The position numbers and the translations under genes were made by a program. Positions 1,235-54,894 of a DNA stretch of 64,000 nt are shown here, one piece after another; positions within the stretch are counted from its first letter, which is position 1; the number at the start of each line of letters is the position of its first letter. The notes below the pieces were generated by a model, which was not told where the DNA came from, did no database searches, and worked only from the letters and a program-made list of their open reading frames with translations. Source of the stretch: Magallana gigas (Eukaryota); NCBI RefSeq assembly GCF_963853765.1, contig NC_088855.1:36402205-36466204 (forward strand), read 5' to 3'.

Positions 1235-1620
1235 GGTGATAAATCATGTAGCCGAATATCATCACTCCGTCATGGCACAATGAAATAATCAATACTAGAA
1301 GGGAAGCCTGTACTCTCACAACACGTCGGCGCTTGATCATAATCACTTTCTAACGATGCTGATTTAAGCGGAGATAAATATCAATATAACCTTTTAAACA
1401 TCAGTTTACAACTGGTAATTCATACATGGCGTAGAAACCGATTTTTTGCATAACATTATATGTTCAAGTCCATATAATTATAAATGCTAGAATATAATTA
1501 AATGAAAACTAAACCTTTAAACACGCAGTGAATAATACTACATTTTAATTTAAGCTGTTGTTATGCTAGAACCCAGATGAGGAGAGAAATACAGAGACTG
1601 GTTTTGTTTTTAAGGTGCTT

Positions 1621-2258: not shown

Positions 2259-3562
2259 TCACTTCCACCACTGAACTATCGGATCGTGTTCTGTGAGTGG
2301 TTTTATCATGTCCCACGCCATTGGCTGAGTGATATCACGTGGTACTACATAGGGTCTCCCTGCATCCCTATAGGCACAGCGGATTCTGTCCCGTTCTGAG
2401 GTAGGGTTGTCGTAATTTGTCTCGGGTGTGTCCCAAGACAAATCGTGAAGAGCGAAACTCAATTCTGGTTGAAGCAAAATGAAACAGTTGTCACACCCGA
2501 AGGCATACCTGCTGTTGGTCGCTGGATAAAAAGGTGCAAACGTGGTGATGAAAAACGTCATCTTGTTGAACTGAAAAACCCAGCCTCGTTTCGAGACATA
2601 CGATTTATCCATGCATTTAATATTTTTCGGATCATTATCCGAAATCACTTTTAGAATTTTCTTGAATGTCTTTGCAAATTCCTACAACAAATATATGTGA
2701 TGTATTATACAAGTACTGAAAAAAAAAAATGTTAGAATCTTGGATGCATTACATAGAGCTCCATAATATTCTTCGATAAATCTCATTTGGATTCGGAGCA
2801 ATTTATTTTCAAATGATATTTTTCTTGAAATACATGTATATCTCAAAGACTTGGCTTACGTGTATGTCGTTATGGTGATATTCCTCGGGTATTTCGATAA
2901 CGAATCCATCAAGTTTATACTGGCGACAAACAATTGTAAACTGCAGCAGAGTTGGTAGCCATCTAAAAAAAACGTCGACTTTGAATAACAACTTTTTGCA
3001 TGGTTTGACACACCTGAATTTAAATGAAAAATTAAAAAAAAATTGTGTACAGTTGTGTATATATACATAATGAAGCAAAGTTATGAAGCCTTACCTGAAA
3101 ACATTCTCTTCTGCAAAATAATTAAAAAAACAAAATGTTACAACTTATTTCAAGATTCCAGTACGTTTTGTCAGATACATAAGGAATACTACTGTGGAAC
3201 CCAAAAGGGGTTTTATGTTGGATGTGAATAAAGTGTTAGTGAGATAAATTACCCAAACTTAATTCTTGGTTCCAATCCTTATTTCCCCAGAGTTTCGCCT
3301 TCTTTGCAAATATACATTCCGTGTTTTCTTGTACAGGGTTGAATTGCTGCAGTGCCGTGACACTGGTTGCGTCATAGGTCACGAACCCAAACACCGCCCT
3401 CTCTACGCTCCTCTGTAGCTCCTCCTCATCCACCAAGGGGTATAACTCGTTTACGATGTGTCGCGTTGTTTTCTGATCACTGTCTGATGAGGCATTGGGT
3501 TGCTTTGCCGGGGATAGTATATATAAAGATGCTAGAAAAAACACGACATTATGAATAAACAA
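2259..3562 (-). CDS. Three-exon gene encoding a conserved-looking hypothetical protein of about 310 aa. The exons are 3254-3562, 2860-2978 and 2259-2681. It has a hydrophobic N-terminus.
   Basis: Three minus-strand ORF segments join in frame through GT-AG splice sites. The donor is TTGG|gtaatt at 3250-3253. The first acceptor is ttattcaaag|TC at 2979-2980. The second donor is CAC|gtaagc at 2854-2859 and the second acceptor is ttgttgtag|GAATTT at 2682-2683. The joined protein reads ...KDWNQELSL-VDVFFRWLPTLLQFTIVCRQYKLDGFVIEIPEEYHHNDIH-EFAKTFKKILKVISDNDPKN...PIVQWWK. I could not assign a family by eye. Confidence 0.4.
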
Positions 3563-5085: not shown

Positions 5086-5903
5086 CTATCCCAGTTTCTT
5101 TGATTTTTTCTTTACACCCTTTGGGGGACCAAATATCTTGAAGGTTGTTCTGTAAAAATAAAAAATAGTACTATAAATACATAAATATTTTACAAGAAAT
5201 GATCTTCTTATAACATTTGACTTAATACGACATAGTTTTCATTTGACATGAAATATAATGTAGCAATTCAAAGTCTATTTAATAACAGGGACATACATAT
5301 ATATACTTACTACTTAGTTTATACTCCCTGCTATTAAGTAATGTTGACAAAATGTTTGTATCATTTGTATCTCAAAGTGTACCAAATAAAAATTTACAAA
5401 AAGAACCATGATAAAAATGTTCTCCTTAGTACTGTTTGTGGTGGTACAAGTATATTATCTGTCTATTGTGATTCCAAGGGATATTAAACATGTGCAAATT
5501 AAGGGAGGAGATCAGGAGAGGCCAGGACCCCCCCCCCCCCCCCCCCAACCAATAAAACAATAAAAATTCAAATTTGTTAAAATTTACATAGTAAAATTAC
5601 CAAAAATGTGCCCCAGACCCCCACCCCTCCTCTTCAAAAAAGTTCTGGATCCATGAAAGTAAACATGTACATTACCACCAGAAATAAAGGGGGATCTTCT
5701 ATGTATAGTCAGAGTTACATGTACATGTATCTTATCGTTAATAAATGAAGATCTTAGATATAAACTACTAAGTACTTACTGACATGTTCCACAAATTGGA
5801 CTGAAGGCACAAAATACTACAATAAATGGATTTAAATAATTCTTATGTTAATATACTGGACAAAGTATTTAAACCCAATTATACTACATATCAATTAAAT
5901 TGG

Positions 5904-5942
<39 letters not shown>

Positions 5943-8900
5943 CTTACTTGAGAGACAGACAGAACACACGTATCCGATATCTATGAGGTTGCGGTGACAG
6001 AAGCATGCAGCTCTGTAGTCCACCTGGACTTTGGGAGGAAGGGTCAGCTTTGGTCTCTCAAGGGGGTCGGGAAGGAAAACCCACTGAAAAATGTAATTTG
6101 TTCATTATCTATTTCTGCAATCATGCTATTTCAAACCACATAATCATGTTGATGTAGATTAAGATTGTATCATATGTGGATATTAAAAAAAAAAATTGAC
6201 AAATTCAAAGAGAGTATGATAAAAATTTCAATATTTGGTGCTTTTAACATTTTAAGAAAAGAGTATAACGATGCAAAATAAAAGTTTGCTTACAATTTCT
6301 ATACATTTCTTCTGTGGTCAAATAAGAAAACTACTGGTGACTGATGAGTAATTAAAATTTTTGGGGCAACATGTGCATGGAGGTTCATCATTTGTTAGAG
6401 ATTCAAGTTGCAGTCTTAAAATCATAAAGCAAATAAAGAAAAAAATCTAACAAACCATCAAGTACTGCAACAGTCCTTTCATTTGAGGAATCTTCAGATA
6501 TATGCCCCCGGTTATATCACAAGCCTGAAATTAAACTGGTGTTCACTAAGTAAATTCTACAAAAAAGTAATAAATAAATGCATTTTTACAAAACAATTTT
6601 TCAAATATGAGCCAGCTTTTCTTAACCTGTTGCAGGAGTCCTGATTCATTATCCAAAACACAGGCATCGATTACCACATTCTACAAAGAGAAAAGAAACA
6701 CCACTTGTTCAAAACAATTCTTTTATAAATCTTAATGCATTTAGGTTGTAAGTTATGTGAATATGTATGGTACATGCCTGTTTCTGGGCTGTAAAAACGG
6801 CATTCATTAAATTCATATATTGCTCTGTGTTGTCCTCAGACCCTTTGATCACCTAGAACACAAAAATAATCTTAGATTTCTTATGCATATATATAATTTG
6901 GAGTGTAAACAATTTAGATTTTGATCGTGATCAGTGATTGTTTCAATGAAAACAGTACATGTATACGATATTTTTTTTTAAAGTTCATGTTCTGAATCTT
7001 ACCAGAATTCGACTGGAAAGAATCCCCGCTTCTTCATGACTCCTCTCTGTCTTGTTGATATCTTTTTAAGTTAAGAATCACCATGTCCTAGCAAGTACAA
7101 TGTACATGTGTAATTGCATTTACAGTAATTAATATTATGCTCAAAACAACATTGCAACTTTGCTGAAAATATTCCAAGGATACGACACAGAGCCATGGCC
7201 AAAGCACCAGCAACCAGAGAGTCTGGATAGAGTTGTCCATTCATACCTGAAAAAAATGAACATACGTCTTTTAAATGCGATTCTGTTTTTATAGCATACA
7301 TGTACCTGCTATTATTCAGAATAAAATGAACGTTGATTTTGACCCAATATTCAACTGATTGTTCAGCAAGCACTAGAAAATGCCAGCATTTTTAATATCA
7401 AAACAGACCTAAATACAATAATGTAACAAGATAATATTTTATTCAGGGAAATAAGTTGTTCATTGTAAGATAATCACATTGAAGGTTTTAAAACAAAATA
7501 AATGTAATGAATTTATACAAATCTTTATCCAACATCCATCAGAAAACTTACAATTGTCTATCAGGTTTTTAATTCCCTCTTTGATTTGCTTGTCCACCTG
7601 ATTAAAGAGCTCGTATTTCCCATCAGTCCCTTCTGTCACTTCATCTGCTTCTGATATCACATGAACTGTGGGATCATTCTTTGGATACAAAAACACACTG
7701 AAAACAAAATTCACATAAGTAGATCTATGCACAGAAAACAAATATGACAAAAAACTACTTTAAATCATTAAATAAATTTAATATAGATCTTCAGGATGCC
7801 CTATTAAAAAGCACAAGCTGATTTGCTGATGTGATCCATGCAATTAAATATTTTCTTTTCAAATGGCTGTTATGAGGCCATGCTCTCGCTGTCACTGGCT
7901 TAAGGTGGGTCGCGGGTTTGCTTTCGTCATCAAATTCTGTACGCAATTTAGACAACTTGTATGGCCGTTTTGTGCACATTTGTTTATGACAAATTGCATA
8001 TGAACAATAATTTCTCTTTTCTGTATTTTTGTGGACAATATTTATGTAAAAAGAATCAGCATTATCCTTTGAACCTTAAATCTGTAAAAGTTGTAGCTTT
8101 AGCAGTCCTGAATTTAGTTTTTTATAAATGATTGCTATGACTGAGTAAGTGGAACAGGTTTAACATTTTTTGACGTTGTGCTCATGAAAATGCGACAATT
8201 TTTGGTAGAATAATCAGACACATAAAATAAAATACCAAAATATCTAGTGAGAACTCAAATTTTTTTTTTACATAAATAATTTGTAAATCGTGTTTTCATA
8301 GAAACATAGAAACAATTGATAATTTGTCTAAATTGTTTAGAAGCTATTTGCAATTTCTCAAAATAACTCCCATCTTGGATGTAAAGAGAAATATGCTCAT
8401 TTTCCTATCTGTTTCCTTAGAAAAGCGTCAAAACAGCACCACAAACGATACTAAGTTTAGAGCGGCATTGTATACTAATAGCGTAGGCAAATTGCATAGG
8501 CAAATTTGATAAAAATTTTATATAATGAACTGTATATCCTAAATAATGATTTAACAAATTTTCAGGGCATGTTTCCTCTCGAGATTTTTTATGGGGTAAA
8601 CCTGCGGCCCACTGTAAGTTTGAAAACAATAGCTTCCAAGAATGTAAGATGTTTCCAACTAAAGACACAGTAGCAATTGGGGTAAGTCATTTTGTTTCAA
8701 TTTTTAAGATATAGTTTGGCTATGTATTAAAAAACATCATATGATTTCTATCCAACGCTTACCAAAAAAGAATTTCTTTTGCTTTATCATCACTATTGTA
8801 AGATGCCATTTTAGGTATTCAGCTAACACTAGCAGTTGAATATTTTTATTTTGAATCTAATTTTTCCATTGCAAAGCTCAAAATACTACTGGCATACCAC

Positions 8901-15833: not shown

Positions 15834-17743
15834 CTAATTTTTTTTTCTTTTTTTTTCTCCAAAGTGGTTTGAATTACATGTAGCTACAAGACCAATCAAA
15901 GTACTGAAAGCCGGGCTCTTTTGGTGTGTCTTTATGCATATTGTGTGGTAAAGACTGAAAATCTCTATCTCTCTCTCTCTCTCTCTCATGCTTTTAATGT
16001 TGGCAAAGCGTCAGAGAGCGACCAAATTTTGTAAGCGGCTATAAACAAAAATATGTCTGTCTAATAGAAAAAAGTTCAACAGTTGGTGCCTTGAATTTTG
16101 CAACAAGCGTTATATATTCAATCCCCATTTCTTCAATGCGCAGCAAGGTAGTTCATGGAAATTCATGCGCATCGTATGTGTCCAAAATGCATAGTCTTGT
16201 TTAAACATGTTATTAATAAGAAAACTTAAAAAGATAAACAATTCTCCTCTCGAATTTAAAAAAAAAGAAACAAAATGCCAACACTTTTGACAAAACGTGG
16301 CTCTTTTTGTAACTATTTGGTATAGCCGAAGCATTTACTTTGACTCTGATTGGTTTTTTGTTTACTTTTGAAGTTATGCTATTTATAGTAACATTGGCGA
16401 TTTGCCTGCCTACAGCCAGGACTCTGCTTTCAGCAGAGCCTGGGTAAAAATTGTAAGTAGCAGGCATAAATTTCAAACAATTATTCCTCTGGGTAGCATT
16501 TCAACATACAAACCTACATGTAGAGCCAAGAGATTTGTAATGTTATTACAGACAAAGACAGTTGAAAATGTAATTATATAAGAATAAGCAGAATAAATTT
16601 TTGTACTCCACCTGGTTAACAATTTTCAAAAGTAACATTGAATTTTAAAGTTTATTTCTAATTTGTAAAACAATACATTTAGTACAAGTTTATTACAATA
16701 TTGCAAACCAATCATTTTCTATTACAAGAATGTTCAAACAAAATATTGTACGGAAAACCAATTATTTACAGTACTATGTATTAGTCTAAGAAGAATGTTC
16801 AGAAACAGATCAGCATTACACATGTAAAAAAAAAATACTGATGAAAAAGTATTATCCAAGATTAAAGAAAATATTAATGAAGAATTGATAAGTTGCCTAG
16901 ACTGAAGAATGTAAAAAATTTAGAGATAAACTAAAACACAAATGTGGAAGTTGTTGACAAGATTAAAATAAAAATAGAAGTTGCAAAACAAAAGTAAACA
17001 TGAATGAATTATTGACCCCCCCCCCCCCTCCAAAGATGATAAATACAAAGTGTTGCAAAACAATCTGCATTAAATTGACCATGGATTTCCAACTATGGTT
17101 TTAAAAAATCAACGTCTTAATGTATTGCAGCCAAACAACTCCACTAAAATCTACTATCATTTAACTTTGCAATGATAAGAATTAAATTTATGTAATTAAC
17201 TATAAATTTCATTTTTGAATGGGATAAAGAATTTTGCAGACAATATCACAGACAAATAAAGATACAATGTATATGAAATAAAAATATATGACACTGTTAT
17301 ACAAATCTATCACAGCTTTTGTTGATCAAATATAAACTACATTTGCTATCACTTCATTGGCTTTGTAAGAAACAAATTAAACTTTCGCAGTTTGACATAG
17401 AGATCAAATTTAAAAATTGCACTGGATAGTTGATAAAATCCATTCCAAGCCAGAGGGTTGTTAGGTTTTGCGCCCTTGCTCTGTTGTCATCTAGTCTAGA
17501 AGAGAATGATCGACTCCTCTTAGATGGGACACTAGCCAATGGCAGGGTAACTTTCAGTTGATTTAGCTGGCTGGGTTGAGAAAATGCAGATACAGAAGTA
17601 CCCTGTTCAAAATCACACAAACACATCATATGTCCACGGTGCGATTTGAACCAGCGACCTTTTACTTAGTGGCCACTGAGCCGTGTGTTCCATTATATTG
17701 CTCTACATTCTTAACTTAGTCCTTTTTCAATAGTATCATAAAA

Positions 17744-20700
17744 TTAGAACAGTGACTGTAACAGGCAATCCACAAGATGTGTCAGGTTTTTTCCAAGATC
17801 CAAATCTCTGATGTAAGGAGTCCATATTGGTTTACGATTTCCCAACTGAATGGATGCCTCTAGTGGAAAATCAAACCCAATGCTGACAACTTCTTTCATA
17901 CATTTAAAACTGACTACCACCGAAGAAATGTTTGGCGATATGTCAAGAAGATGTTCGCAGCAGCACAGCCACTTTGGAAGTTTTCTTTTTTTGAATTCAT
18001 GCATGAACTTCATTATACCAACAAGAAAAGTGGCCATCACAGGTAACAGCTCACTCTGAATGGATTTTGCTACGAAAGAAAAATAATTTTATCTTCAATG
18101 TACAAAAAGTTTGAATTATGATTATTGATGGTCCTAAAACACATGCAAGAACAATGCATCATGGGTTTTGTTCCTCTGTTTTACATCATTTTCTGTATCA
18201 GAGGTAGTACATGTATTGGGAAATAATTTGATATCAAAAGTACCATAATTTTGAGAAAAAATTCTAAATAATTGAACATTTTTTCCTTTGCAAATATTCT
18301 ATCAAATATTTCTGTGTTGAATGTCACAGGCAGGTAATGGTCTAAAATAGCTAGCAGGATATTACTTCCACAATGTTAATATGTTGCATGTATTATCTTA
18401 CATAGTGACAGCAAGCCTTGATTCTTCAGTAACTGTTCCAGTTTTTCGGCACTGATTGCTAATCCCTTAGCGAGATCCTTATCAAGTCTCCACAGACCAT
18501 CCTGCATAAATGCAATTTAAATTATTAAATGACTATCACATTTCTAATTCTTATGATTTGTAAGGACAAGAATATTATCACTTAGCTCTAGCAAGTTGCA
18601 CTTTTCTGTCTACAAATACTAGTAATAACAAAAATAAACGCAGTCAGTTCTTGCCAAGAATATTTATTAAAGGTTCATTAAATGACAAACTCTCTTAAAA
18701 GCAATAATCTTCTATAAATTGAGTTTGCATGACTTATACATGTACCTCGTTCAAAGGTGGCAGATATCTAAAGTTCATTGTGCCATCTTTGTCCCACACA
18801 CTCTTCCACATGTCGATGTAAGGTGCATCTTAAATTAAAGAAAAAGAAACGAAGAAATGACACAAAAATACTTTCATTTGAAATAAATTAAGAAGTAAAT
18901 CACAAGAAATAAGAGAAATATATCTTTCCAAAACAAAACTAGAAAGGTGCAATAATTGAAGAGTTAGATATACAGACCTGTAGAAAGTGTTTCATTCAGT
19001 TTGTTCCTGTATTCTTTAACCTACAAATCAAGTAATTGATGATTTCTTATTGAACAAACCATTAACATTTTTTAAAAACATGTATATCCTATATGTATAC
19101 CAGCAAAAGCAACCAACCAGATTACAAATCAAGAGAGAGAATAAACTCGAAAAATTAATGCAACAATCTCTGATAGGAAAATGCTTAACAATGATGGTCA
19201 TTACAACTTCATTATATTTCTTAGTTGAAAGTGTGGATGTTGTCTGAATTGTACATTCATAACAATTTTAATAATTAATTAGATAGATATTCTGTTTATA
19301 ATGGCTATTCATATGAAATTTTACATTTATGCTCCGAAGCCAGAGGTGAATTTTGAACAATATAAACATAATATGATTTTGTCAAACACATACCTGCATT
19401 TTATGTTCCTTCACAAACTCTTCAAGCTGTTCAGCCACAGCCTTTCCATCTTCTGGGATAAGGAACAATATTGTCTCACTCATAGAATGTGGAATTGCTA
19501 AAACAAGTTCAAAATGTCCCTTAGGTTCCTCGATTTGAATGCATCCAATCTACAAAGAACAAGAGCATTCTAACAGTTTCCGGCAATTCAAGCAATACTT
19601 AATCAAGAAAAAGATGCTAAATTCTTAAAATCCAAAAACCAGAAACATATATATCCAGTGAATGACTTATGTGTTGGCTCAACAAATTAACATTCTGCAT
19701 GGCCAAAAGTGACCCATATGATAAACATACACATGCATGTTTGAATAACGCAAAGTATGAAATTTCTGTGTACTGCATGATCCTTCACCAATATCAATTT
19801 CACATGATAACTTATACACAACTGCTTAAGTAGTATAAAGTAAAGAAAATGCATGTAAAAAATAAGAATGTATTGCTTTTGTTGCAGCAATGATATTGAT
19901 TTGTTCTCTCAAGTTCTGTGTAGTAGAAACTGTATAAAAAAAACAACATGAGGAATGTGAGACACTCTAATGACGGTGATGAAAAATGTGAGATATTTCT
20001 GTGACAGTGATGAGAAATGTGAGATGTTCTTGTGACAGTGACATGAAATGTGAGATATGTTCCTGTGACAGTGATGAGAAATGTGAGATATGTTTCTGTG
20101 ACAGTTATGAGAAATGTGAGATGTTCCTGTGACAGCGATGAGAAATGTGTGATATGTTCCTGTGACAGTGACGAGAAATGTGAGATATGTTCCTGTTACA
20201 GTGATGAGATTTGTGAGATATGTTCCTGTGACAGTGATGAGAAATGTTAGATGTTCCTGTTACAGTGATGAGAAATGTGTGAGATGTTCCTGTGAAATGT
20301 GATACTTTCCTATGAAATGTTCCTGTGACAGTGATAAGAAATGTGATATGTTCCTGATGATGAACATGAGATGTTTTTAATCATAGTGATGAGAAATGTG
20401 AGATGTTCTTTTGCCAATGATGATTTGTTCTTACCAGTCCTATTGGTAAGAATTCTCCTATTGGTAAGAATTCTTCTGGAGCATCTTGCACTTCCATAGT
20501 TGCTTGCACCGCATTCTCCGGAAATTGCTGCAGGCTCAACATTCTCAGCAGATAACTTGGCACAAAGGTCATGTATAATGTTTCTGGCAACAATACATTT
20601 TGTACCCTACAAGTTTAAATAATCAGAATACAAATTGCATACACCATGAAACCTTACTCCAAAAATTTATTATAAAATTTAGTAAAACAAATACAGTAAA

Positions 20701-23700
20701 ACACGGTTATAGCGAACACGCTTATAATGAATTGACGCTTACAGCGAAGTGAATTTCATTCCCCAAGATTCTATTTCATGTTGTAAACTTGATGGATATA
20801 ACGAATTATGCTTATAACGAAGTTAAATCGCCCGTCCCTGGGACTTCGTTATAAGCGTGTTTTACTGTATTATTAATAATGAATCAATATGGTTTGTTCC
20901 TTGCTTTTCACGAAGAGATTATAATTCTGTAGAAGCAGAAATATTCATTAAGGATTTAAAAAATTTCATTATTTTCGTTGGCAGAATAAATCAACGAAAT
21001 TAAATCCACAATAAATATTTCATCCAAGTATTATAAATACAAAGTTGATAGGTGATACAATTTAGAAATTGCAATATGATGAAATTAATTGCCAACAAAA
21101 TTTTATTTGGTTTAAAACAACAAAATTTTAACCCAACCAAAATATGTGGTTTTTTTTATAATTAACAACTCTAACACACTTTTGAATTGCTTTTAAACTT
21201 AAACCTGCCTGAGCATCTAAATAATCAAGGTCACACTCTGTATTTGAAGCTAGTTTTGCTTTGTACTTCATTTACATACACTCATGTAGTTAAATCAACC
21301 ATGCATGTTTGAATAAGTAAGGACCATCATTAACCCAGATATGTGACCTGCTCGAAAAACTTTAAACTCATCCAGCATCACCTAATGCTCATCAAAGCTT
21401 GAAGAGTGCATTAGTATTAAAAGATGCATCATCCATCTAAGTAAAGATAGGACCAAAAATATCATAAATGTGATCATCATAAGGCAATTAATGCTCTATA
21501 ATTGTTTAACCTGGTTTTAAACCTGTAACCTCCTTCAGCATTCAATACCTATGGCTTAGATTCAGCAATCAAGTTTGTCAAGTGCTTAAGTATCATTAGA
21601 TGAACACTCTATGAAAGTTTGGTGAAGACAGGAATAAGGCTATTATTAACCTGAATATGGCCATCAAAGGGCAAATGCACCAAAGACTTAGCCTGCTCCT
21701 TAACTGTAACCTCCTTTAGCATTTGATACCTATAGCTTAGATTCAGCATCCAATTTTTTATTCCTGAAATGTGCCTAGATGCACCATAGGCTCAGTGAGC
21801 TGAAAATAACAGCAAATCTGTGTATACCTTTGTACTTGCTCTTATAAGGCATACTTATCAATGAAAGTCACTCTCAAATGTTTCTTACCTCTCTTTTCTC
21901 TGTGGATTAACATAAACGTCAATTTCATAATTTATGTTTTCCCTGGTACTAATCTTTTGATAGTGCAAATTCCCTGAAATAAGAAAATCATAACTTGAGT
22001 TCAGATTAAATATAGTGGCAGAGTTCTGTCTTGGATTTCTCATTTAAAAAACTTCAAATCTCAGATTTATGTCTCAGTTTCTAGTAAAAATTTTATTTTG
22101 TCCTCCAATTCAAGAAAGCACAAATTTGTATATTAAATTTCTAAAAAAAATTGTTTTAAACTAATTACTTTAACCATGTCAGACTTAAATCAAATCTCAA
22201 ACATTGAAACAATATAAATTGCATGAATACAAAATTGTTAATGTTATTAACATTCCTTAATTAGATCCATTCCACTCAGTTACAAATATGGAATTAATCA
22301 TTATCATTTACCAATACTCTGACTTTCTTCATAACAAACTTGATTCATATATCTTTGTTATAAGAATGTTCATCTATACCTGTCCAGCAGTGGACTTCAA
22401 AATCTCCATTTCCAACAGGTGCCTCAAACTGACTTTCATAAAGGCACAAGGAATTCAAAAGTTCTACAAAGAGGCAATTGCAATAAATCAATGCATATAA
22501 ATACAAAATACATAATAGGACAGAAATCATGTTTATTTCTTCAACTATAGTTTATTCTGTTTAAATATTTAATCCATTATCTCACCTTCTTCTGATAGCT
22601 CTAGTTCAAACTGGGTTCCCTTCAGATTATATGGTTCTTCGGTTCTCTGTGGCATCTTACTATCATCACTTTTCTTACTTATTTTTCTTTTCCTGCCTCT
22701 TGTTTTCTTTCCATACAATTTTTTTCTCCTATCTTTAATGCTTCTGTCTCTATCCCAGCTTCTATCACTACCCATTTTACTACTTTCCCAATACCAATCT
22801 CTTCTTTTGGATTTTCTGTAAATGTTTCTATCTCTTCTATTTTCTCTTTCATCCCAGCTTTTATTCCGGCGTCTGACTCTACTATCCCAGCTTTTGTTCC
22901 TGCTTCTGTCTCTTCTACCCCAGCTTTGATCCCTTCTTCTGTCTCTTCTATCTCTTCTTCTGTTTTCTCTTTCCCAGCTTCTGTTCCTACTTCCATCCCT
23001 ACTCTCCCAGCTCCTATCCCTACTTCGGTCTCTTCTATCCCAGCTCCTATCATAACTTCTGTCTCTTCTATACCAGCTCCAATCTCTACTTTTGGTTCTA
23101 GTATCTCTGTTTCTATCCCTACTTCTGGTTCTAATATCCCTGCTTCTATCCCTACTTCTGGTTCTTCCATCCCAGCTTCTATCACATCTTCTGTCTCTTC
23201 TATCCCAGCTTTTATCATAACTTCTGTCTCTTCTATACCAGCTCCAATCTCTACTTTTGGTTCTAGTATCTCTGTTTCTATCCCTACTTCTGGTTCTAAT
23301 ATCCCTGCTTCTATCCCTACTTCTGGTTCTTCCATCCCAGCTTCTATCACATCTTCTGTCTCTTCTATCCCAGCTTTTATCTCTACTGCTATCCATGCAT
23401 CTATCTCTACTTCTGTCTCTTCTTTCTCTTCTTTTATTTTCCCTATCCCAGCTTCTGTCTCTACTCTCCCAGCTTCTATCCGTACTTCTTGATTTCCTAG
23501 TACAGCTCCCATCATAACTTCTGTCTCTACTCTCCCAGCTCCTATCCCTACTTCGGTCTCTTCTATCCCAGCTCCTATCATAACTTCTGTCTCTTCTATA
23601 CCTGCTCCAATCTCTACTTTTGGTTCTTGTATCTCTGCTTCTATCCCTACTTCTGGTTCTAGTATCCCTGCTTCTATCCCTACTTCTGGTTCTACTATCC

Positions 23701-26700
23701 AAGCTTCTATCACATTTCCTGTCTCTTCTATCCAAGCTTCTATCCCTACTTTTGGTGCTGCAATCCCTGCTGTTATCTCTACTGGATCTTTTATCTCTAC
23801 TGCTGGTTCTACTATCCAAGTTCATATCTCTACTTCTCTCCCTTCTACCCAAGCTACTATTCCTGCTTCTGGTTATACTATCACAGTTTCTAACCCTACT
23901 TCTGTCCCTTCTACCCAAGCTTCTATCCCTTCTTTTGGTGCTATTATCCTTGATTTTGGTTTTACTATCCAAGCTTCTATCCCTACTGTTGGTGCTACTA
24001 TCCCTGCTTCTGGTTATACTATCACAGCTTCTATCCCTTCTTCTGGAACTGTTATCCCTACTTTTGGTGCTACTATCCCGGCTTCTGGTTATACTATTCC
24101 AGCTTCTATCCCCACTTCTTGATCTTCTATCAAAGGTCCTATTATGACTTCTGTCTTTTCTATTCCTACTTTTGGTGCTACTTTCCCTACTTCTTGTTAT
24201 ACTATCCCAGTTTCTATCCCTTATTCTGGATCTAGTAACCCTGATTCTATCCCTACTTCTGGATCTTCTATCCAAGCTCCTATTCATGCTTTTGGTTATA
24301 ATATCCCAGCTTCTATCCCCACTTCTTGATCTTCTATCAAAGGTCCTATTATGACTTCTGTCTTTTCTATTCCTACTTTTGGTGCTACTATCCCGGCTTC
24401 TGGTTATACTATTCCAGCTTCTATCCCCACTTCTTGATCTTCTATCAAAGGTCCTATCATGACTTCTGTCTTTTCTATTCCTACTTTTGGTGCTACTTTC
24501 CCTACTTCTTGTTATACTATCCCAGTTTCTATCCCTTATTCTGGATCTAGTAACCCTGATTCTATCCCTACTTCTGGATCTTCTATCCAAGCTCCTATTC
24601 ATGCTTTTGGTTATAATATCCCAGCTTCTATCCCTACTTCTTAATCTTCTATCCAAGCTCCTATCAATGCTTCTGGTTAAAATATCCCAGCTTCTATCCC
24701 TACTTCTTGATCTTTTATCAAAGTTCCTATCATGACTTCTATCCAAGCTTCTATCCCTTCTTTTGGTGCTACTATCCTTGCTTTTAGTTTTACTATCCCA
24801 GCTTCTATCCATACTTCTGGATCTGTTATCCCTCCTTCTATCCCAGCTTTTATCCCTACTTTTGGTGCTACTATCCCTGCTTCTGGTTATACTATCCAAG
24901 CTTTTTTCTTTGCTTTTGGTGCTTCTATCCCTGCTTCTGGTTATATCATCCAAGCTTCTTTCCTTACTTTTGATGCTACTATCCTTGCTTCTGGTTATAC
25001 TATCCCAGCTTCTATCCCTACTTCTTAATCTTCTATCAAAGCTCCTATCATGACTTCTGTCTCTTCTATTACTACTTTTGGTGCTACTATCCCTGCTTCT
25101 GGATATACTACCCCAGTTTCTATCCCTTATTCTGGATCTAGTAACCCTGCTTCTATCCCTACTTCTGGATCTTCTATCCAAGCTTCTGTTCCTACTTTTG
25201 GTGCTACTATCTCTGCTTCTGGTTATACTATCCCAGCTTCTATCCATACTTCTGGATCTGTTATCCCTCCTTCTATCCCAGCTTTTATCCCTACTTTTGG
25301 TGCTACTATCCCTGCTTCTGGTTATACTATCCAAGCTTTTTTCTTTGCTTTTGGTGCTTCTATCCCTGCTTCTGGTTATATCATCCAAGCTTCTTTCCTT
25401 ACTTTTGATGCTACTATCCTTGCTTCTGGTTATACTATCCCAGCTTCTATCCCTACTTCTTGATCTTCTATCAAAGCTCCTAACATGACTTCTGTCTCTT
25501 CTATTACTACTTTTGGTGCTACTATCCCTGCTTCTGGATATACTACCCCAGTTTCTATCCCTTATTCTGGATCTAGTAACCCTGCTTCTATCCCTACTTC
25601 TGGATCTTCTATCCAAGCTTCTGTTCCTACTTTTGGTGCTACTATCTCTGCTTCTGGTTATACTATCCCAGCTTCTATCCATATTTTTGGTGCTACTTTC
25701 TTCGCTTCTATCACTATTTCTGTCTCGTCTATTCCAGCTCCTATCCCTACTTCTGTCTCTTCTATGCCAGCTCCTATCACAACTTCTGACTCCTCTTTCT
25801 TCTTGTCTACTGTTATATTTCCTGTTTCTACTCCTTCCTCTTCTCTTAAAAACTGGACTTTTACTACTTTTAAAACTTTGATCTTCACTTTGCAAATATC
25901 TATTTCTTTTTTCTGAACCCGTGCCTTCTGAATAATTAGATTTTTCTTGTTCTCCATATCTCTTAATTATATTAACACTACTCTCATTTTCCTCAATATC
26001 TCTCTCATTTTCCTCAATGTCTTCATTTTCATCAAAGCATTTGTCTATTGGTCTAGGTCTTCTCTCTAAACTACTTCCCCTGTCATCATCCACCTCAAAA
26101 TCATCATCTTCACTGTCAGATTCAACATGAATATCACCATCTGAATATTCTTCGTCTGCTTTCTGATCTATATTGCCAGTGAAACTTTGTGGTGGCACGG
26201 TTTGAGAGACTGCTTCTGTAGTGGAGAAGTATGTTTGTGATATGGTGGGATTGTATGCTGGTGAGGTGGGACTGTATGCTGGTGAGGTGGGACTGTATGC
26301 TGGTGAGGTGGGACAAAATCCTGCTGAGGTAGAACCATATGCTGGTGAAGCAGGACTGAATGCTGGTGGGGTAAAACTGTTTGTATGAATGGTAGGAGTT
26401 AAAGTAGCCCTTAAGGAATAGCCCCTTTTCTTAGAAGCACTGGAACTTTGAATTGTTGATTTTAAAATCTGATTTAATTCCATAAGAGAGGAATTTTGTA
26501 CAACTTCATCTGGCTCATTTTCCTTTTGTGTTACATCAATGTCAAACTCTACATTATCTAAGTCTGATTCATTGAGTACTGCTGTTATTGACACACCTGT
26601 GGTGTTGCCAACATCATTCAACTGTTCAGCTATTACATTTGGTCCTTCTTGCTGATCCACCAAACTTTTCTGGTATTCCTATAATATAACAGAGATAGCC

Positions 26701-27870
26701 GAAATTTTTATAAGTTTTTTTTATCACATTTCTTGGTGTAAACAGACATGTATTTCTCAAAATGTCCTTTTTATGTGCCATCCAAATAAAAATCATATTT
26801 TTATTTCATTTTTTGAAAAAATCCTCACTTCTGGTATAGGTATTTACTACTTCAATTGTACAGTTTGCTTTCGTCTCTATTAAACACAAACTATTAAAAA
26901 AAATGGACATTGTTGCTGTTACTTTTAACTTCTTTGATATTCAGACTATCTTTAGGGTCAAAGTAACTGAATTATCATTTAGAGTTAAAAGATTCTAAAA
27001 TGCAATGTCCTCCATGATACTATTCAAAGTACATACGGTAAAACTTGTTTAGTGCGAACACGGATATAGCGAATTCTTGGATATAGCGAAGTTTTTTTGA
27101 GTCCCCGGTAAAATTCTTAACAAATCTTTGCAAAATTTTTCAGTTATAACGAATTCTCATATAACGAATATACGGATATAGCGAACTGATTTTGAATCCC
27201 GTAGAGGTGAATAAAAACGAAATTTAACAGCTTTATAATGAATTTCTTAACAGTTTAAAAAAGTTTGCAATACCATTAAACAAAATAGTTTGAATGAATT
27301 TATTTTCATATGTTTTTTTCAATTCACAATTCGATTATTAAAGGTATCAAAGTAATGTTTTTGTTATTTTAAGCCTCAATTATCAAAAATTATTGTCTTG
27401 TGAAAGAAAACGTGTATATAATGAATTCGCTATAGATATTATTACGAATTCATTATACGGATATAACGAATTACGGATATAACGAAGTAATTCCATTAGT
27501 CCCTAGGACTTCGCTATAACCGAGTTTTGCTATGGTGTTCATGTCAATTATAAAGCATGATTAAAAAAAAACTGGGTGATGCATAGATAAAGTAAGAAAA
27601 TCAAATGAAAAAGAATTAACATGTACATATTAAAAATAATGCTTATATCCACAGCCATTAGGTATTATTTCAACCCCAATAGTTCTCTGGGGACTTTTAT
27701 TTGCATATACATGTAATACTTGAGCAAGGTTAAATTATACTTGTAGATATATCTCCTCATTAAATTAATTTTCATTTAACAAAAATTAAATGTACCATTT
27801 GGTTTGTATGAACTTTATCCATTTTCTCCAGAAATCCCAGCTCTTCTGCCTCTTTTTCACTTAAACATTT
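17744..27870 (-). CDS. Multi-exon gene with an SR-related N-terminal giant exon and conserved globular C-terminal exons. Its identity is unresolved and its 5' start was not found.
   Basis: Minus-strand exon candidates, each with GT-AG boundaries, are:
- about 27780-27870, encoding KKCLSEKEAEELGFLEKMDKVHTNQM
- the giant exon at 22586-26678
- 22380-22463, encoding ELLNSLCLYESQFEAPVGNGDFEVHCWT, which is phase-compatible with the giant exon's donor G|gtgaga
- about 21903-21984
- about 20441-20600
- about 19385-19540, encoding IGCIQIEEPKGHFELVLAIPHSMSETILFLIPEDGKAVAEQLEEFVKEHKMQ
- about 18960-19020
- about 18770-18830, encoding DAPYIDMWKSVWDKDGTMNFRYLPPLNE
- about 18400-18510, encoding DGLWRLDKDLAKGLAISAEKLEQLLKNQ
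- the terminal exon at 17744-18055, encoding ...KEVVSIGFDFPLEASIQLGNRKPIWTPYIRDLDLGKNLTHLVDCLLQSLF*. Confidence 0.5.
19950..20400. repeat. Minisatellite of about 31-bp units (gtgacagtgatgagaaatgtgagatgttcct), 12 or more copies, intronic.
   Basis: The tandem repeat is visible directly. The plus-strand ORF 20050-20250 is simply its translation (SCDSDEKC...), not a gene. Confidence 0.85.
20690..20872. mobile_element. MITE with terminal inverted repeats. It belongs to the same family as 27037-27545.
   Basis: The termini are acagtaaaacacggttatagcgaacacgcttataa... on the left and ...cgttataagcgtgttttactgta on the right. Confidence 0.5.
22586..26678 (-). CDS. Giant 4.1-kb single coding exon. It encodes an acidic N-terminal region, RNA-Pol-II-CTD-like heptads (SPAYSPTSPAYSPTSPAYNPT) and then about 1,100 aa of RS/RD/RSW-rich tandem repeats, so it is an SR-related protein domain.
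   Basis: This is an uninterrupted 1364-codon ORF in AT-rich DNA. The ORF track's 'M' start is actually TTG, and an in-frame TAG sits just upstream (plus strand 26679-26681). The exon therefore begins at the acceptor ttatattatag|GAATACCAG, so there are upstream exons. The 3' end has the donor GAAG|gtgaga (plus strand 22580-22585). The DNA is internally tandem-repetitive: the identical plus-strand ORFs 24144-24329 and 24459-24644 reveal a 315-bp period, and 25050 versus 25485 reveal a 435-bp period. The three 21-bp heptad-coding units lie at about 26236-26330. Confidence 0.65.
27037..27545. mobile_element. MITE-family member of about 500 bp, the longer relative of the element at 20690-20872.
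   Basis: The termini are tacggtaaaacttgtttagtgcgaacacggatatagcgaa on the left and cgctataaccgagttttgctatggt on the right. The internal motif cggatat(a/g)acgaa recurs. Confidence 0.45.
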
Positions 27871-29489
27871 CTTCTTTTTCTTTTTTTCTTCAACGAATTA
27901 AATGATACCAAGATACAGTTATGTACTCCTCTATGAAAATGTATACAAACTACTGCTTGTTGTGTCATTAATAAACTTCTGTACAAAGCTAGGTTTTCTT
28001 TTAAAAGCACAGCTTGTAGTCTTAATGTCAAATACTGTAAATTCCTTATTTTACGTGGGTACTTAAATCTGCATTTCCGTTGCTTTGTATCAAATCGCGA
28101 GAATAAAAAATCACGATCAAAACTGTCTGAAAAATTAAAGCGAGACTTTAAAATCGGTGAGGGTTAATTCCTCATGTTTAATTAGGAAACTACAGTGTGA
28201 TAACAATGCCTTTAGAATTGGTAAGTGGCTGATCAACCTTTTTAATCAAGCTTTATATACTACCATCTATTCAAATGGAATCTAATTCAATAATCATTTT
28301 ATTGGTAAATTGTTACTTTCAAGAGATGATTTTAAAGATTGTTGAAGGCAATAGATTAAAATTGTTTCTTGCTAGCATTCACCACGATACACTGGGATAA
28401 ATTTTAACAGTATGACACAAAATCTGTGATGTCTCTATCCCCACTAAAAATTTGAACTAAACAGCTAATCCATAACTGTACATGTATCATACTTATACTC
28501 AGTAATCCTATTTTTTCCTGATAAACAAATCTTCTTCGAGGTTACTTAACAATTCCATGCTATAATCAAAGTTTCCTAGTTTAAACAGTCAGTAAATTGA
28601 AATCCTTGCTTGGACAAGGAGTCTAAATTTCCATAAATGTTTAGTTTGGTTGCAACATAATTCAATAAAGAACCTTTAACTTTCAGTATCAAAATTATGA
28701 GAGATTTAAGAATTCTAAATTGAAAAGGCCTTCCTTTTTGTTGAGAGAGATACATGTAGTACATGTATATCTGTTTGAGTTAAAAATTGCTACTTACTTT
28801 TAAAACATGATTGAAGTTCATCAGATGTCAGATCTACAGGCAGCTAAACAAAACAAAAACTCCATCATAGAATTCTTCATGCATGCATTTACTCATAGTA
28901 CATATGTATATAAGTATATACTAGTAACTAAGGTTATTAAATTATTCACAAGCTAAAATGTATCTAATAGCAAATACTAAATCATTCCTTTATTTACTAC
29001 AATTAAAGATAATTATTCCTCAGATACCAAAATCTTAATAAAATATATTACATCTCAAACTCTTGTAAACTTTGAAGTTAATTAAAATCACAAAATGTAA
29101 TGCAGCTTGAATTTTTCAACAATTCAAGTTCAGCATAAATCTGCTTTGAATTTCTTTTCAAACATAAAGATCATCTTCAGAGGTCTTTGTGTCCTTTCAC
29201 ACTGATAACACAATTTTAATGCATGCAGATATTGAACAAGCATAGTATGCTGTTATAATTACTATTCATGGATTACAAAGTCATTAAAAAAAAAAAAAAA
29301 TTGAACTGGAATAGTTTTCCATTCAAGAAAAATCATTTGTTTATAAAACTACATCCTCACAAACTGGTGAAATTTGGACTGTCATGGAAAAATGGTACTC
29401 TTATTCATTCAATTTCAAAGCACTGTCTGCTCTAGCTAGTGAACAGTGACTTTTCAATCTTACCGGTACCTATATTTGATTCTACTTAC

Positions 29490-30565
29490 CGTTACACTGT
29501 AGATTGGGGTATCACTTGGACTAGAGCTTGCCTGGTGATGCATAGTAGGAGGAGGTGCACCTCCTCTCAAACGTTGAACCATAAAAATAATGGAATGTTC
29601 TCTCATATCTGGAAAACCATAGGAGTATAAATGAATGTACATTGTAGGTAGTGTGCAAAGGTTACAAGGAATATTGTGATGTTGCTCAACATTATCATAT
29701 TCCTCGTAATCTTAGTACAGTGTATTTATATGAAATACTGAAACCAACTTTATTCGCAACAACTTTATTTCGCGATTTACCAAAGATAAAACCTTTTGCA
29801 GCAACTAATTTTTGCCATCAAGTCACAGATTACTTAAAAATATATACACCAGAGAAATAGCTGGTCGGCGGTGAGAAATACTTGCGTCAACAAGGCTGTT
29901 GCGAACAGCGGGATTTTCTCGCATGCGAATAAAAGTTAGTTTACAGTACATATGCATGTACATATGTTCAGTTTATATACATGAACAATGCTGCAGTGAA
30001 CATGCATATACTTTGGTTTAATATTAAATCACAACAAATGCCCAAATTGTACAGTGAGGTATATGTACATGCAGTACTATATTGTTACTAACAATGATCA
30101 AATACTTTTTTTTTAATATTTAATGCTCTTGAATTCTACTGAATCCTGACAAACTCTAGTTATAAAAACCACTTAGGCAGCAAACCTATAGCAATGTATT
30201 TCAAGCTTCATACATGAATAATGATAAACAAACAATCTCTTGATACAGTACATATTTTGGGTTTTTTCAGACTTAATTATCAAATAATTGTTTCGAAGAA
30301 GTTTCAGTTTTTAATTAATCTAATCATGTTTCTACAGGCATTTATCTGGCAGAAATAAACGTTACTTAATACACACAAAAATCACAAATTAATATATGAC
30401 CTAAATTGTCTGTGTCCTCTAGTAGTTTTCCATGATGAATTAATCGTATGCTGCTCTCAGGCAGACCCTCTTTCTCCATGATTTCTAACTTTAATTGAGC
30501 CACTGTGCCGGCCACAACAGGAATGGACCTCCCAGTCAGAGTTCGCACCTCAAGCTGTTTAGGAA
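29490..30565 (-). CDS. Two exons (30401-30565 and 29490-29608) encoding a ubiquitin-like domain. They are either extra 3' exons of the PARP4-like gene or part of a separate UBL-domain gene.
   Basis: The spliced peptide is VPKQLEVRTLTGRSIPVVAGTVAQLKLEIMEKEGLPESSIRLIHHGKLLEDTDNLG-DMREHSIIFMVQRLRGGAPPPTMHHQASSSPSDTPIYSVT. It is ubiquitin-like end to end: compare ubiquitin TLTGKTITLEV...[44 protein letters not shown]. The donors are G|gtcata and ACG|gtaagt, and the acceptors are ccag| and ttccag|. More same-strand exons lie upstream at about 30930-31015 and 31270-31430. Confidence 0.55.
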
Positions 30566-32169: not shown

Positions 32170-35100
32170 TTTGTACCTTTTCATCCATATTATCCGCATT
32201 GATCCATCCCATGTAGGTAAGATTATCCACAGATTCATTGTTTACTAGCTCTTCAATACTTGGACCCTCAGTTGTTTCCCCCTAAAATAATAAATCATTT
32301 TCTATATTTTTTTAGTTACAGGTGATACACATGATCATACATGTACATTGTTTTTAAAATGTATATTCATCATAAACCATATTTGCAAATACAAAAGTAC
32401 ATATATCAGTACTTAAAATATAAAATATCAGGTGTTCAGGAACTTTGCAATGTTCCATACAATTGCCACAAACTGCTCTGGTACAATTTTTGCAATTTCA
32501 AAATATCAAACATGACCCAGTGAAAGATCCCTTATATTCTACCTCTGTCCTCTCTTCTATGGCTACAAAACTGGTGTATGGAGTCACAATTCCAAACTCT
32601 TTGCTGAGCTCAATGATATGCTGCTTTCTTTCTTGTTTAATTAACTGAAAGAAAAAACCCAGTTCATCAGTAAAATCGAATTCCAGATCTTGATTTATTT
32701 GACAAGAACTCTGGTCAAATTTCAAATTTTACTTTTACAAACCAAATTATTTTGATGTTTCACTAACATGCAAGATGATTTTAACAGAGAGAATTGGGGA
32801 TCCTGAATAATTTTAACATGTGTGATTTATTTTAATGTATATAAGATGTAGATATGAAGAATTACAGTGTGCATGATCAGTGCCATACCTTGTGGTGAAG
32901 TTTGCTGTCACTCAGAACCCCGTCCTCATAATCTCTTATAACAGCCCGGGCCGCCAACTGATGCAGCATCTAACGGTACAGAACAGAAAGTGCATAAATA
33001 GCAAATGTTAAATCTTTCAGTTCATGTTCATAGATGAAATTAAATGACATTTGAAATACTCAAAACTCTACCAATCTTAACATTGACTATTTCAAGAATC
33101 ATAGCAGTTTGTAGGTATTGGTCAATAATCATCTATTTACACTTATGAAACTTCCTTTTCAACCTGTAAATCTAGGACTGGCTCCGTCGTCACTTTCCTC
33201 AAGTCAATACTCAGCCTCAAATCTGAGGTTTTTCCTCAAATTTTTATGTGCTTTAATTTCTTTAAAGTATTTGAGCCGAGGAATGAGTTGAGTGATTAGA
33301 AAATATTTTGGTGACGGTGGAGCAAGGTCAGTCTATATTTGCCCTGTATATTATTACCTTAATACTGTAGTTTTGCATGGTGATTAAACAGAAAATTTGA
33401 TACCATTTGTCATATTAATGCTTCTTTACCTTTCCCTCTGTGAAGTTCAGCTCTGTTGTAGAAACAATTGTTTCAAATTCCTGTTCATCAACCTTTGCCT
33501 TTAAAATTGCCTATAAAGAATAAACTATGAATGAAATAATCTTTCAAATATAATAAATCAACACAAATGATTACAGTTCCTAAAAAATAAACCTATATTA
33601 GTTTTTATATACATGTACAAGCACTTTTACTTATCAAATATCAAACTTATTTCCTAGACTGCTTCACAATTATCTCCCCTTGAAATCTGTACAATGTATT
33701 TTGGTTTGAAAAAAAAAAACCCACTTTAAATCAACAACGAATTGCATAGTAATTTAATAACATACCTACATGTACATGTAAATTAACAAAAAATGTCATT
33801 CTTTCAAAACATACCTGTGTGCAATTCTTGACAAATCCATACACCACAAGCCTATTTGCACTGAACAGGCTGGGGATCTTACAGGGAGCCTGAAGGGGTG
33901 GATCTAGTTTATCAGTGAGCGGGCCCCACTCCACCTGCACCTGGGAGATCCCAGGCCGTGTAGCTTGGTCCATTTGTAATGCAATCTGTAAATACACCCA
34001 CAGAAGCATACACTTATGTACCCTGGAAAAAACCCATCTCTCTCTCTCTCTCTCTCTCTCAATAAGAAGCACCTATAAAAATAAGTTAGCAATAGTCTTC
34101 AAATCCAATCCAATCATTACAATAAACACTTTAATTTAACATGAAAAAAAGTTCCACCTGTTATTTACCTTTGACTGCCAGTTAGATTTGGTTTTGCTGT
34201 TGAAGTATTCATATGTCCCACCTCCATAATTAGCTAAACTCCGTAATGTATGACTGTCCCTATTACTTCTAAAATGATATCACCACAACATTTTTGATTA
34301 ATAAAAAGATCATTTTAAAATTGTTCCATTTTCCAACCATTTTATCAATGTTCACTACTGGTGTTATTGAATGTTTAATAAAGCACAGAAATATCTTTCA
34401 GATATTCAGGATAAATCTTGCAATTATGGGATGTGTATCTTTATTGGCAACATCAAGCATATTCAAACTAAAGGTTTTAGAAACATAAGTATAATATACA
34501 AATATTTTCACTATTATTTTATAATTTCTATCAGGTGAACAAACACACTTACCAGTCTGTAACATAGAGCATGTTTACTTACCCAACACCCATGCAGAAC
34601 AGCCTATTTTTGGAGGAATGTTTGGCAACAGTTTCAAAAAGCCCCTCATTTCCTACAAATCCATCAGAGATCAGGAAGATGCTTCTACTGCCCTCTGCTG
34701 GACTTAGTAAGTACAGAGATTTCAGGGGAGATAACACATCACTGCAGCCCATCACAGGATTGGCTCTCTGAAATAATAACATGATAATACAAATATTTTA
34801 TCAGATGAATAATAGATGTAATATACATGTATATTACAAACATACATATATAAAAAGAAAATTCTACGGTTACTTGATGTGTATCTTAATTGTTATACAC
34901 TAGGTATAGCACATGTGTTTAAGAAATCTCATACATGTGTTATGAACATTATATGCATAAATACATGTACATGACAATGGTTACATGCATTTTCAACATG
35001 TCAGAAAATTGAGCCTTTATCCCTTTACAACCAAGTCTAAACAAACCTCAATATATTTCATGGCCTCATTAGTTGAATTCTTTGTAATTCTATGAGGAAA

Positions 35101-51055: not shown

Positions 51056-51057
51056 AT

Positions 51058-52095: not shown

Positions 52096-52446
52096 AGTGT
52101 CGGAATTAATGGCTGAAATTGTTGATCCTGTATCTAAAAGAGCATTAAACCGAGTGGTATGTACATATACAGGAATAGAACATTTTTCTTTAAAAGAAAT
52201 TAAAACATCAACAGAATCTGTCTCTTGCCCATCTCCAAATTTGTTTTGATTGAAATTTCGATTTTTCTTTTGTTTTAAATTAGAATTTTGTGTTGATTTG
52301 AAATTGTGAATTTGATTTTTCTTTAAATTTAAGTGTTGATCGTTAAAATTTTGAAAATGGTTTTGTTGCCAACGTAATTGTTTTTTCTGATGATAATTTT
52401 GAACAGTGGATCTGGGAATGAACGTTTTGGAGATAGGCGCGATTTC

Positions 52447-54805: not shown

Positions 54806-54810
<5 letters not shown>

Positions 54811-54890: not shown

Positions 54891-54894
<4 letters not shown>

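Follow-up and report, generated by a model that had tools for sequence, protein, structure and literature searches.

Analysis of a 64,000-nucleotide window of oyster DNA (contig NC_088855.1, positions 36,402,205 to 36,466,204 of the forward strand; all coordinates below are those of the window) identifies a single minus-strand exon of 4,093 nt at 22586..26678, hereafter the giant exon, as a real and expressed coding exon. We assign it, with a probability of roughly 85%, to the oyster orthologue of PARP4 (vault PARP, a member of PARP clade 5), in which it would replace, in greatly enlarged form, the disordered linker of the vertebrate protein. The gene extends along the minus strand from ~45 kb to ~17 kb of the window, with clear matches to the ART, VIT and vWA domains of PARP4 and weak matches to its BRCT and MVP-interacting domains. 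The gene is thus an unusual variant of a known protein, PARP4, and not a new protein family. A preliminary description of this DNA, made from the sequence, could place the globular C-terminus that follows the exon in no known family, a view that does not hold if, as we propose, the exon and this C-terminus form the C-terminal half of a PARP4 orthologue.

Open frame and transcripts of the giant exon

The giant exon holds 1,364 codons and one further base without a stop codon. It starts in phase 0 and passes its last base on to the next exon downstream (exon +1). A polypyrimidine/AG acceptor, TTATATTATAG|GAATACCAG (AG|GAATACCAG; TTATATTATAG|GAA), lies directly upstream of 26678, and the donor at 22586 reads SEE-G|GT. 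The open reading frame (ORF) lister reported the frame at 22569..26663 (minus strand, 1364 aa), and the stop-free stretch itself runs from 26678 to 22572. The length of this frame, already singled out in the preliminary description, is confirmed by the stop statistics: the coding frame contains no stops, the other two sense frames contain 44 and 297, the probability of 1364 codons without a stop is ~3e-46 given the exon's own base composition, and the longest open frame in 200 shuffles of the exon did not exceed 149 codons. The GC content of the region is 37-39%, against 31-36% in its surroundings. From N to C terminus the encoded protein consists of ~100 unique residues, six heptads resembling those of the RNA polymerase II C-terminal domain (CTD), an acidic patch, a region of ~1,030 residues rich in arginine, serine and aspartate (the R/S/D region), and a basic cluster, GKKTRGRKRKISKK. 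The unique N- and C-terminal parts of this product are conserved in C. gigas and other oysters.

Transcript evidence was drawn from contigs and ORFs of assembled public sequencing runs, recovered with the downstream peptides; we treat these contigs as transcripts because they are intron-less copies of the locus. Three same-species contigs, L001 (SRR12564931), L005 (SRR6058536) and L006 (SRR5451716), share 97-100% identity with the window. All three start inside the R/S/D array (reaching up to 23025), are open in the frame of the exon from their first base, cover the 3' 440 nt of the giant exon, splice 22586 to 22463, and run on to a stop codon at 17746..17744 and through a 3' untranslated region (UTR) to 16895. 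The ORF cluster to which these transcripts belong has 32 members from different runs. Three contigs from related species use identical exon joins, with R/S/D sequence open to their 5' ends; their protein identity to the query is 58-65%, rising to 67-83% over the aligned C-terminal region. All nine introns checked (9/9) are of the GT-AG type, and the coding sequence from the start of the giant exon to the stop encodes 1,713 aa.

The 22586/22463 junction had been predicted from splice phase and is reproduced exactly by the same-species contigs, and the downstream peptides quoted with that prediction were found where they had been placed. The predicted path to a conserved C-terminus was right in continuing to the stop, but had passed over three exons. 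In order, the transcripts define exon +1 at 22380..22463 (ELLNSLCLYESQFEAPVGNGDFEVHCWTG; its GT-AG junction is fixed by L001), exon +2 at 21889..21973, exon +3 at 20435..20606, exon +4 at 19394..19549, the 43-nt exon +5 at 18978..19020, exon +6 at 18746..18828 (DAPYIDMWKSVWDKDGTMNFRYLPPLNE), exon +7 at 18402..18501 (DGLWRLDKDL...LLSL) and the last exon at 16895..18069, which carries the stop codon and a 3' UTR reaching to at least 16895; all are on the minus strand, and exons +2, +3 and +5 (21973..21889, 20606..20435 and 19020..18978) are those missed at first. Exon +3 contains an 18-nt in-frame tandem duplication (EFLPIG twice, 20455..20438) that is present in the window and absent from the three same-species contigs, and which would reflect either polymorphism or a slip in the assembly. 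Between exons +3 and +4, in sequence that the transcripts show to be intronic, lies a tandem repeat (~19815..20400, minus strand), several frames of which are open (HCHRNISH.../LTFLITVTGT...).

A purine-rich intronic minisatellite could in principle give rise to a long open frame as a non-coding by-product. The DNA does consist of tandem repeats in a hierarchy, and its strands are strongly skewed (the sense strand is 70% purine), and open stretches of 100-380 codons occur in other frames too. However, such an origin would have to accommodate 1,364 codons without a stop, ~330 of them outside the repeats, repeat periods that all divide by 3, the in-frame splicing of the exon to downstream coding exons in transcripts of at least four species, and unique exon ends conserved with C. 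gigas and other oysters. We therefore give this explanation next to no credence. A chance ORF in satellite DNA was likewise rejected, on the spliced transcripts and the stop statistics, and the open frame together with the spliced same-species transcripts bears out the earlier proposal of a genuine giant coding exon.

Evidence for a PARP4 orthologue

Upstream of the giant exon, between 32177 and 44948 on the same strand, lies a series of exons whose Pfam and human PARP4 matches correspond to BRCT, HD, ART, VIT, vWA and the ITIH-like region that follows vWA. The reference for these comparisons was the full-length human PARP4 sequence of 1,724 aa contained in PDB entries 11jf (11jf_P), 9bw6 and 9bw7. 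The concatenated upstream stop-free segments match residues 226-1095 of human PARP4 with E=5.4e-184, and other matches are far weaker (ITIH4, 1e-9; ITIH1, 1e-8; PARP1-3, ~1e-4). Within this alignment, the HD and ART exons correspond to residues 226-458 and 485-573, and the match over 485-1095, which includes the VIT and vWA part, has a domain E-value of 3.8e-158. The PARP catalytic domain (PF00644) reaches 29.5 bits, its cut-off being 26.7, and the catalytic residues H, Y and E are all present (LLMHAS, GIYFSNS and DDEFVIY). The BRCT match is weak, with PF16589 (BRCT_2) scoring 22.2 bits against a cut-off of 27.3 (E=1.8e-4) in one exon fragment at 44619-44948. Among database proteins, those closest to it are PARP4 or PARP4-like sequences from a land snail, the limpet Lottia, Saccostrea, fishes, corals and Trichoplax, and the best relatives of the upstream exons carry VIT and VWA Pfam domains together with PARP4 names. 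The protein-index searches returned nothing longer than 995 aa, so that full-length oyster PARP4 models were not retrievable there, and one of these searches was dominated by fragments of the RPB1 CTD.

The last exon that aligns to the human protein, 33973..33815 (MDQATRPG...NCTQ), corresponds to human PARP4 ~1040-1095. Two C. gigas RefSeq models, XP_034299736 and XP_034299737, which carry the name "serine/threonine-protein kinase fray2-like", begin with this exon. Since their first exon is homologous to PARP4, these models are almost certainly PARP4 fragments that took their name from low-complexity similarity. In both of them exon H (KKKKCLSEKEAEELGFLEKMD) leads into EYKKSLVEQQ..., followed by the CTD-like heptads, then the acidic patch and finally the R/S/D repeats. 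The corresponding exon H of the window (KKKKKKCLSEKEAEELGFLEKMDKVHTNQM; 27796..27887, minus strand) ends at 27796 in a phase-0 donor, ATG|GTACAT, that fits the phase-0 acceptor of the giant exon at 26678, and the junction between the two is the one used in both C. gigas models. The giant exon thus appears to be an internal exon of the oyster PARP4 gene, joined at its 5' end through exon H.

At the other end of the protein, the last ~145 aa (aa 1570-1713, counted from the start of the giant exon) are likely homologous to the MVP-interacting domain of PARP4. A profile of the C-terminus matches human PARP4 1580-1633 at E=0.11, inside the MVP-interacting domain (1562/1570-1724), and hhalign against vertebrate MVP-interacting domains gave a probability of 84% and E=7e-6 over 54 of ~150 columns. 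The resemblance starts in exon +7, and the match begins 143 residues from the oyster C-terminus, compared with 144 in the human protein. The MVP-contact residue S1614 (human IQSLG) is kept in the oyster as LLSLS, and K1618 is not conserved in register; the numbering of both residues agrees with that of the cryo-electron microscopy (cryo-EM) study (PMC12280208). A phmmer search of the C-terminus against PDB sequences gave a match to apolipoprotein A-I alone, which was judged spurious.

The segment between the giant exon and this region, encoded by exons +1 to +4 (~145 aa; aa 1387-1530 from the start of the giant exon), resembles the Med25 ACID/PTOV domain. MED25 itself joins a vWA domain with an ACID domain. 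The oyster segment covers nearly the full PF11232 profile (positions 5-153/154), but scores 21.6 bits (E=2e-4) in two orthologues, below the 25-bit cut-off, and one orthologue gave no match; for further members of the transcript cluster the precomputed annotation lists PF11232 as "weak". Compared with human MED25 402-551, hhalign returned E=2e-4 at a probability of 46%, and BLASTP aligned the two end to end at E=0.004. The reference fold (PF11232; PDB 2ky6, 2xnf) is a seven-stranded beta-barrel with three helices, and Foldseek of a model of the oyster segment, itself of low confidence (predicted local distance difference test, pLDDT, 47), found nothing below E=0.3 in the PDB. Whether exons +1 to +4 encode an ACID/PTOV-like domain is, on this sequence evidence, about an even call. 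The C-terminal exons, ACID-like and MVP-interacting-like alike, were found in run assemblies and in no NCBI-derived protein of the collection searched.

Several observations weigh against placing the exon in PARP4. No same-species transcript contig was found in the public run assemblies over the 5' 3.6 kb of the giant exon or over its junction with exon H; for this junction the evidence consists of canonical splice sites that agree in phase and of C. gigas gene models, which are computational. In C. gigas, NCBI enters the counterpart as a gene of its own, "fray2-like". A HMMER search with a four-species profile of the C-terminal 353 aa against 1.84 billion representative proteins detected no relatives outside oysters, matching oyster fragments and one repetitive protein of 3,726 aa. 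The homology to the MVP-interacting domain spans 54 columns, the remainder having diverged, with K1618 out of register, and conservation of the PARP4-binding residues of MVP is confined to vertebrates (PMC12280208), so that vault anchoring in oysters is uncertain. AlphaFold2 models were of low confidence, with pLDDT 37 for the C-terminal 353 aa (four-sequence alignment) and 47 for the ACID-like sub-region.

Some of these points would also be expected if the exon belonged to an independent SR-like gene, the "fray2-like" locus, with its own promoter, nested in or abutting PARP4 and encoding a CTD/RS (arginine-serine) protein unrelated to PARP4 function, which is close to the lineage-specific coupling factor of the preliminary description. 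The separate gene and name given to the C. gigas counterpart are in keeping with this, as are the recovery of transcript fragments from the 3' part only and the absence of any read-through found from the catalytic exons to the giant exon. Yet the exon in which the C. gigas models start is a homologue of human PARP4 ~1040-1095, the giant exon opens at an acceptor and not at the start codon of a first exon, the order of domains on this strand is colinear with that of human PARP4, and the C-terminus resembles the MVP-interacting domain. Moreover, Pfam detects neither an RNA recognition motif (RRM) nor any other domain of SR proteins in the product of the exon, and searches without proteins longer than 995 aa could not have shown full-length PARP4 models. 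Taken together, we consider an independent gene improbable and favor an internal exon of PARP4.

The R/S/D repeats and the CTD-like heptads

The R/S/D region (22719..25847, minus strand) is composed of arginine-rich mixed-charge repeats with 30% R, 22% S and 15% D. It contains 118 RS, 93 DR and 81 RD dipeptides and 34 RDRS units, and its net charge would be ~+191 if unphosphorylated. Tandem Repeats Finder (TRF) recovered both periods reported beforehand, at 315 bp (1.9 copies, 97%) and at 435 bp (2.2 copies, 97%), along with periods of 165, 108, 66, 54 and 33 bp, all of them multiples of 3. The preliminary description was correct as to the presence of a long repeat region, although its length is ~1,030 aa instead of ~1,100, and its likening of the repeats to those of splicing SR proteins does not stand: nowhere in these 1,030 aa do three or more RS/SR dipeptides follow one another, and Pfam detects no RRM or other SR-protein domain in the giant-exon product. 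A classical SR-protein or RS-domain identity was rejected on these grounds. The region also holds 40 tryptophans, 28 of which lie in the pattern [RKN]-S-W-[DEGNH], mostly as R-S-W-D/E, and most are spaced 11-36 residues apart; such tryptophans are a departure from SR proteins, and no known motif was assigned to them.

By composition the region is an arginine-rich mixed-charge R-(D/S) domain (R-MCD), a compositional class and not a homology family. Domains of this class have been reported to drive length-dependent condensation and entry into nuclear speckles via arginine, with RS domains acting as a phosphorylation-regulated version of them (Greig et al., bioRxiv 10.1101/771592). The oyster region shares with the speckle R-MCDs the alternation of R with D or S and the proportions given above, and it is well beyond the length reported to suffice for condensation (bioRxiv 10.1101/771592). 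In contrast to them, it carries the 40 tryptophans, lacks RS runs of three or more and an RRM, and is joined to an ADP-ribosyltransferase. By analogy, the domain might condense or enter speckles. The basic cluster GKKTRGRKRKISKK at 22671..22712 (minus strand), which follows the repeats and is conserved in four species, is a putative nuclear-localization signal.

The repeat unit is common to the window and C. gigas, as in SRDRSRVTRSR.RD.NW.SI..S.DSSTKS.NRRDRSHDRSFDRRSRSRDRSWD.ITRS, and the unit family is therefore older than the species split. The higher-order duplications are more recent: copies differ at 14/507 positions (435-bp period) and 11/303 positions (315-bp period), near-identity that compares with 71% protein identity, in the stretch that aligns best, between the window query and the C. 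gigas model. This agrees with the recent expansion suggested earlier. Codon differences between copies comprise 20 non-synonymous and one synonymous change, which suggests that the repeats are constrained in composition and frame and not in exact sequence.

With an array of this kind, the exon could be real while its length and copy number are misassembled, by collapse or expansion, so that the 1,364 codons and the blocks first described as verbatim duplicates are in part artefact. The 435-, 315- and 165-bp copies are 93-97% identical and so hard to assemble, the short-read transcript assemblies all break within the array at 22.9-23.0 kb, and the 18-nt duplication in exon +3 of the assembly is absent from all transcripts. 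However, the paired copies are not identical, differing at the positions counted above, which makes a trivial assembly duplication an insufficient account of the array; the frame is also preserved across its whole length, and the last 440 nt match three independent transcript contigs at 98-99%. We regard an error in length and copy number as rather unlikely, though likelier than the other alternatives considered here.

Ahead of the repeats, six CTD-like heptads occupy 26235..26360 on the minus strand (FSPASPA-YGSTSAG-FCPTSPA-YSPTSPA-YSPTSPA-YNPTISQ, of which three were counted as exact YSPTSPA), with SPAYSPTSPAYSPTSPAYNPT located at 26244..26306; TRF resolves them as a 21-bp period of 6.1 copies. 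The near-consensus CTD heptads reported previously are thus present, although the Pfam profile for them (PF05001) scores 19.1 bits, just under its cut-off of 20.3. The CTD of animal RPB1 comprises several dozen heptads. The oyster exon shares with it the heptad YSPTSPA, in three exact and three degenerate units, but differs in having only six units, a PF05001 score below cut-off, and none of the RPB1 core domains. The C. gigas array has ~10 units, and unit number varies between oyster species. One C. gigas isoform, X2 (XP_034299737), removes by splicing precisely the part of the giant exon that contains the heptads, and an AG|GTGTG donor and a CAG acceptor matching that isoform are present in the window at ~26600 and ~26216 (minus strand). 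The CTD-like array may therefore be an alternatively spliced "exitron". Between the heptads and the repeats lies the acidic patch ADEEYSDGDIHVESDSEDDDFEVDDD...ENEDIEENERDIEENE (25983..26159, minus strand), with 30-34% D+E, which is conserved in C. gigas XP_034299736.

Further features of the locus and a proposed role for the enlarged linker

Two additional minus-strand exons, U1 (30565..30402) and U2 (29608..29490), encode a ubiquitin-like (Ubl) domain; both are canonical and phase-compatible and are candidate members of the PARP4 transcript. The PF00240 ubiquitin profile matches 30578-30369 with 37.5 bits against a cut-off of 25.4 (E=2e-9), and U2 supplies the ending ...MVQRLRGG, followed in frame by sequence common to the C. 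gigas model. A chain of exons C (short form), U1, U2, G and H and the giant exon is frame-compatible. The canonical PARP4 exons D and E are out of frame with U1, a clash that would point to alternative isoforms or to a missed exon. The LRGG ending brings to mind ubiquitin fusions, in which case the linker would be cut from the enzyme at this site, freeing a protein of ~1,800 aa with CTD-like, RS-RD, ACID-like and MVP-interacting-like parts. The canonical, phase-compatible Ubl exons with their LRGG end, the in-frame sequence present in the C. gigas model, and the occurrence of a VIT-vWA-Ubl architecture elsewhere (P0198) lend some color to this idea. Against it, the Ubl exons were not seen in the recovered transcripts, their frame does not fit that of the canonical PARP4 exon before them, exon E, the Ubl core is left out of the C. 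gigas models, and the cleavage itself is pure inference. We consider such a split highly improbable, and return to the giant exon as the linker of a continuous PARP4.

Among the other features of the window, an apparently intact Ty3/gypsy-type retroelement lies at 48074..54003 (minus strand), upstream of the PARP4 BRCT exon, with gag at 52450-54003, an aspartyl protease at 51061-52446, and a reverse transcriptase-RNaseH-integrase frame of 1,013 aa at 48074-51112. Long (TA)n/(ATAT) microsatellites, translated as YIYIYI, adjoin it at ~54780..56150. Downstream neighbors, likewise on the minus strand, include a Tfb4/GTF2H3 exon at 5898..6101 (E=2.5e-21), a YqcI/YcgG-like open frame at 2262..2681 (26 bits, just below cut-off), whose family is an unusual one to meet in animals, and an exon with a weak p24/GOLD match at 947..1243.

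A comparison with human PARP4 shows both the shared plan of the two proteins and where they part. AlphaFold analysis describes the human protein as BRCT-WGR-HD-ART, an ITIH-like region, a disordered segment and the MVP-interacting domain (PMC10450202), and cryo-EM of vault-bound PARP4 places long disordered regions between the folded domains, free in the vault lumen (PMC12280208). The oyster order is a weakly matched BRCT, then HD-ART, VIT, vWA, ITIH-like part, linker, ACID-like segment and MVP-interacting-like domain, and because the giant exon falls between the post-vWA exons and the C-terminal domains we regard it as the counterpart of the vertebrate linker. The human linker comprises a few hundred disordered residues, whereas in the oyster 1,364 aa come from the linker exon by itself. 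In the human protein, the MVP-interacting domain begins at 1570, and residues ~1504-1521, which are positively selected in primates as part of a fast-evolving disordered segment, lie inside the linker (PMC10450202). The oyster gene differs further in its Ubl exons and ACID-like segment, which were not detected in human PARP4, and in the divergence of most of its MVP-interacting domain. VWA5A and the inter-alpha-trypsin inhibitor heavy chains share the VIT-vWA core, as the ITIH4 and ITIH1 matches above indicate, but lack BRCT, ART and a giant linker; the C-terminal domain of VWA5A is reported to resemble the MVP-interacting domain of PARP4 (PMC10450202). A literature search on PARP4 and Crassostrea found no description of a giant linker exon, an ACID-like segment or Ubl exons in PARP4.

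We propose that the linker would have grown by in-frame tandem duplications, some of them very recent, to ~1,360 aa. It would probably act as a long, flexible and strongly basic tether between the catalytic and ITIH-like half and the C-terminal module, tunable by phosphorylation. Multivalent arginine contacts would favor polyanions such as RNA or poly- and mono-ADP-ribosylated partners; alternatively, the region might partition into speckle-type condensates. The heptads could serve as short docking or kinase-substrate motifs, removable by splicing of the kind seen in C. gigas isoform X2, and the C-terminal domain would anchor the protein, possibly onto the vault shell. A role in transcription and splicing, such as the coupling factor first proposed, may be entertained on composition only. 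In a more far-reaching version, oyster PARP4 would have been rebuilt as a nuclear, RNA-processing-linked ADP-ribosyltransferase that combines a CTD mimic, an acidic activation-like patch, a 1,000-aa arginine-rich condensate domain and an ACID-like barrel for binding activators, with the LRGG module possibly splitting the two halves. We hold this version to be a long shot; if true, a component of the vault would be directly connected with the condensates of transcription and splicing.

For annotation, the consequence is that the C. gigas "serine/threonine-protein kinase fray2-like" entry almost certainly splits PARP4 and names its middle fragment. The locus also illustrates how in-frame minisatellite expansion can quickly build a very large low-complexity domain. 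An approximately fourfold growth of the PARP4 linker, with sequence resembling the RNA polymerase II tail and speckle-type proteins, amounts to a natural experiment on what this linker does, whether as a tether, as a binder of RNA or ADP-ribose, or as a localization signal.

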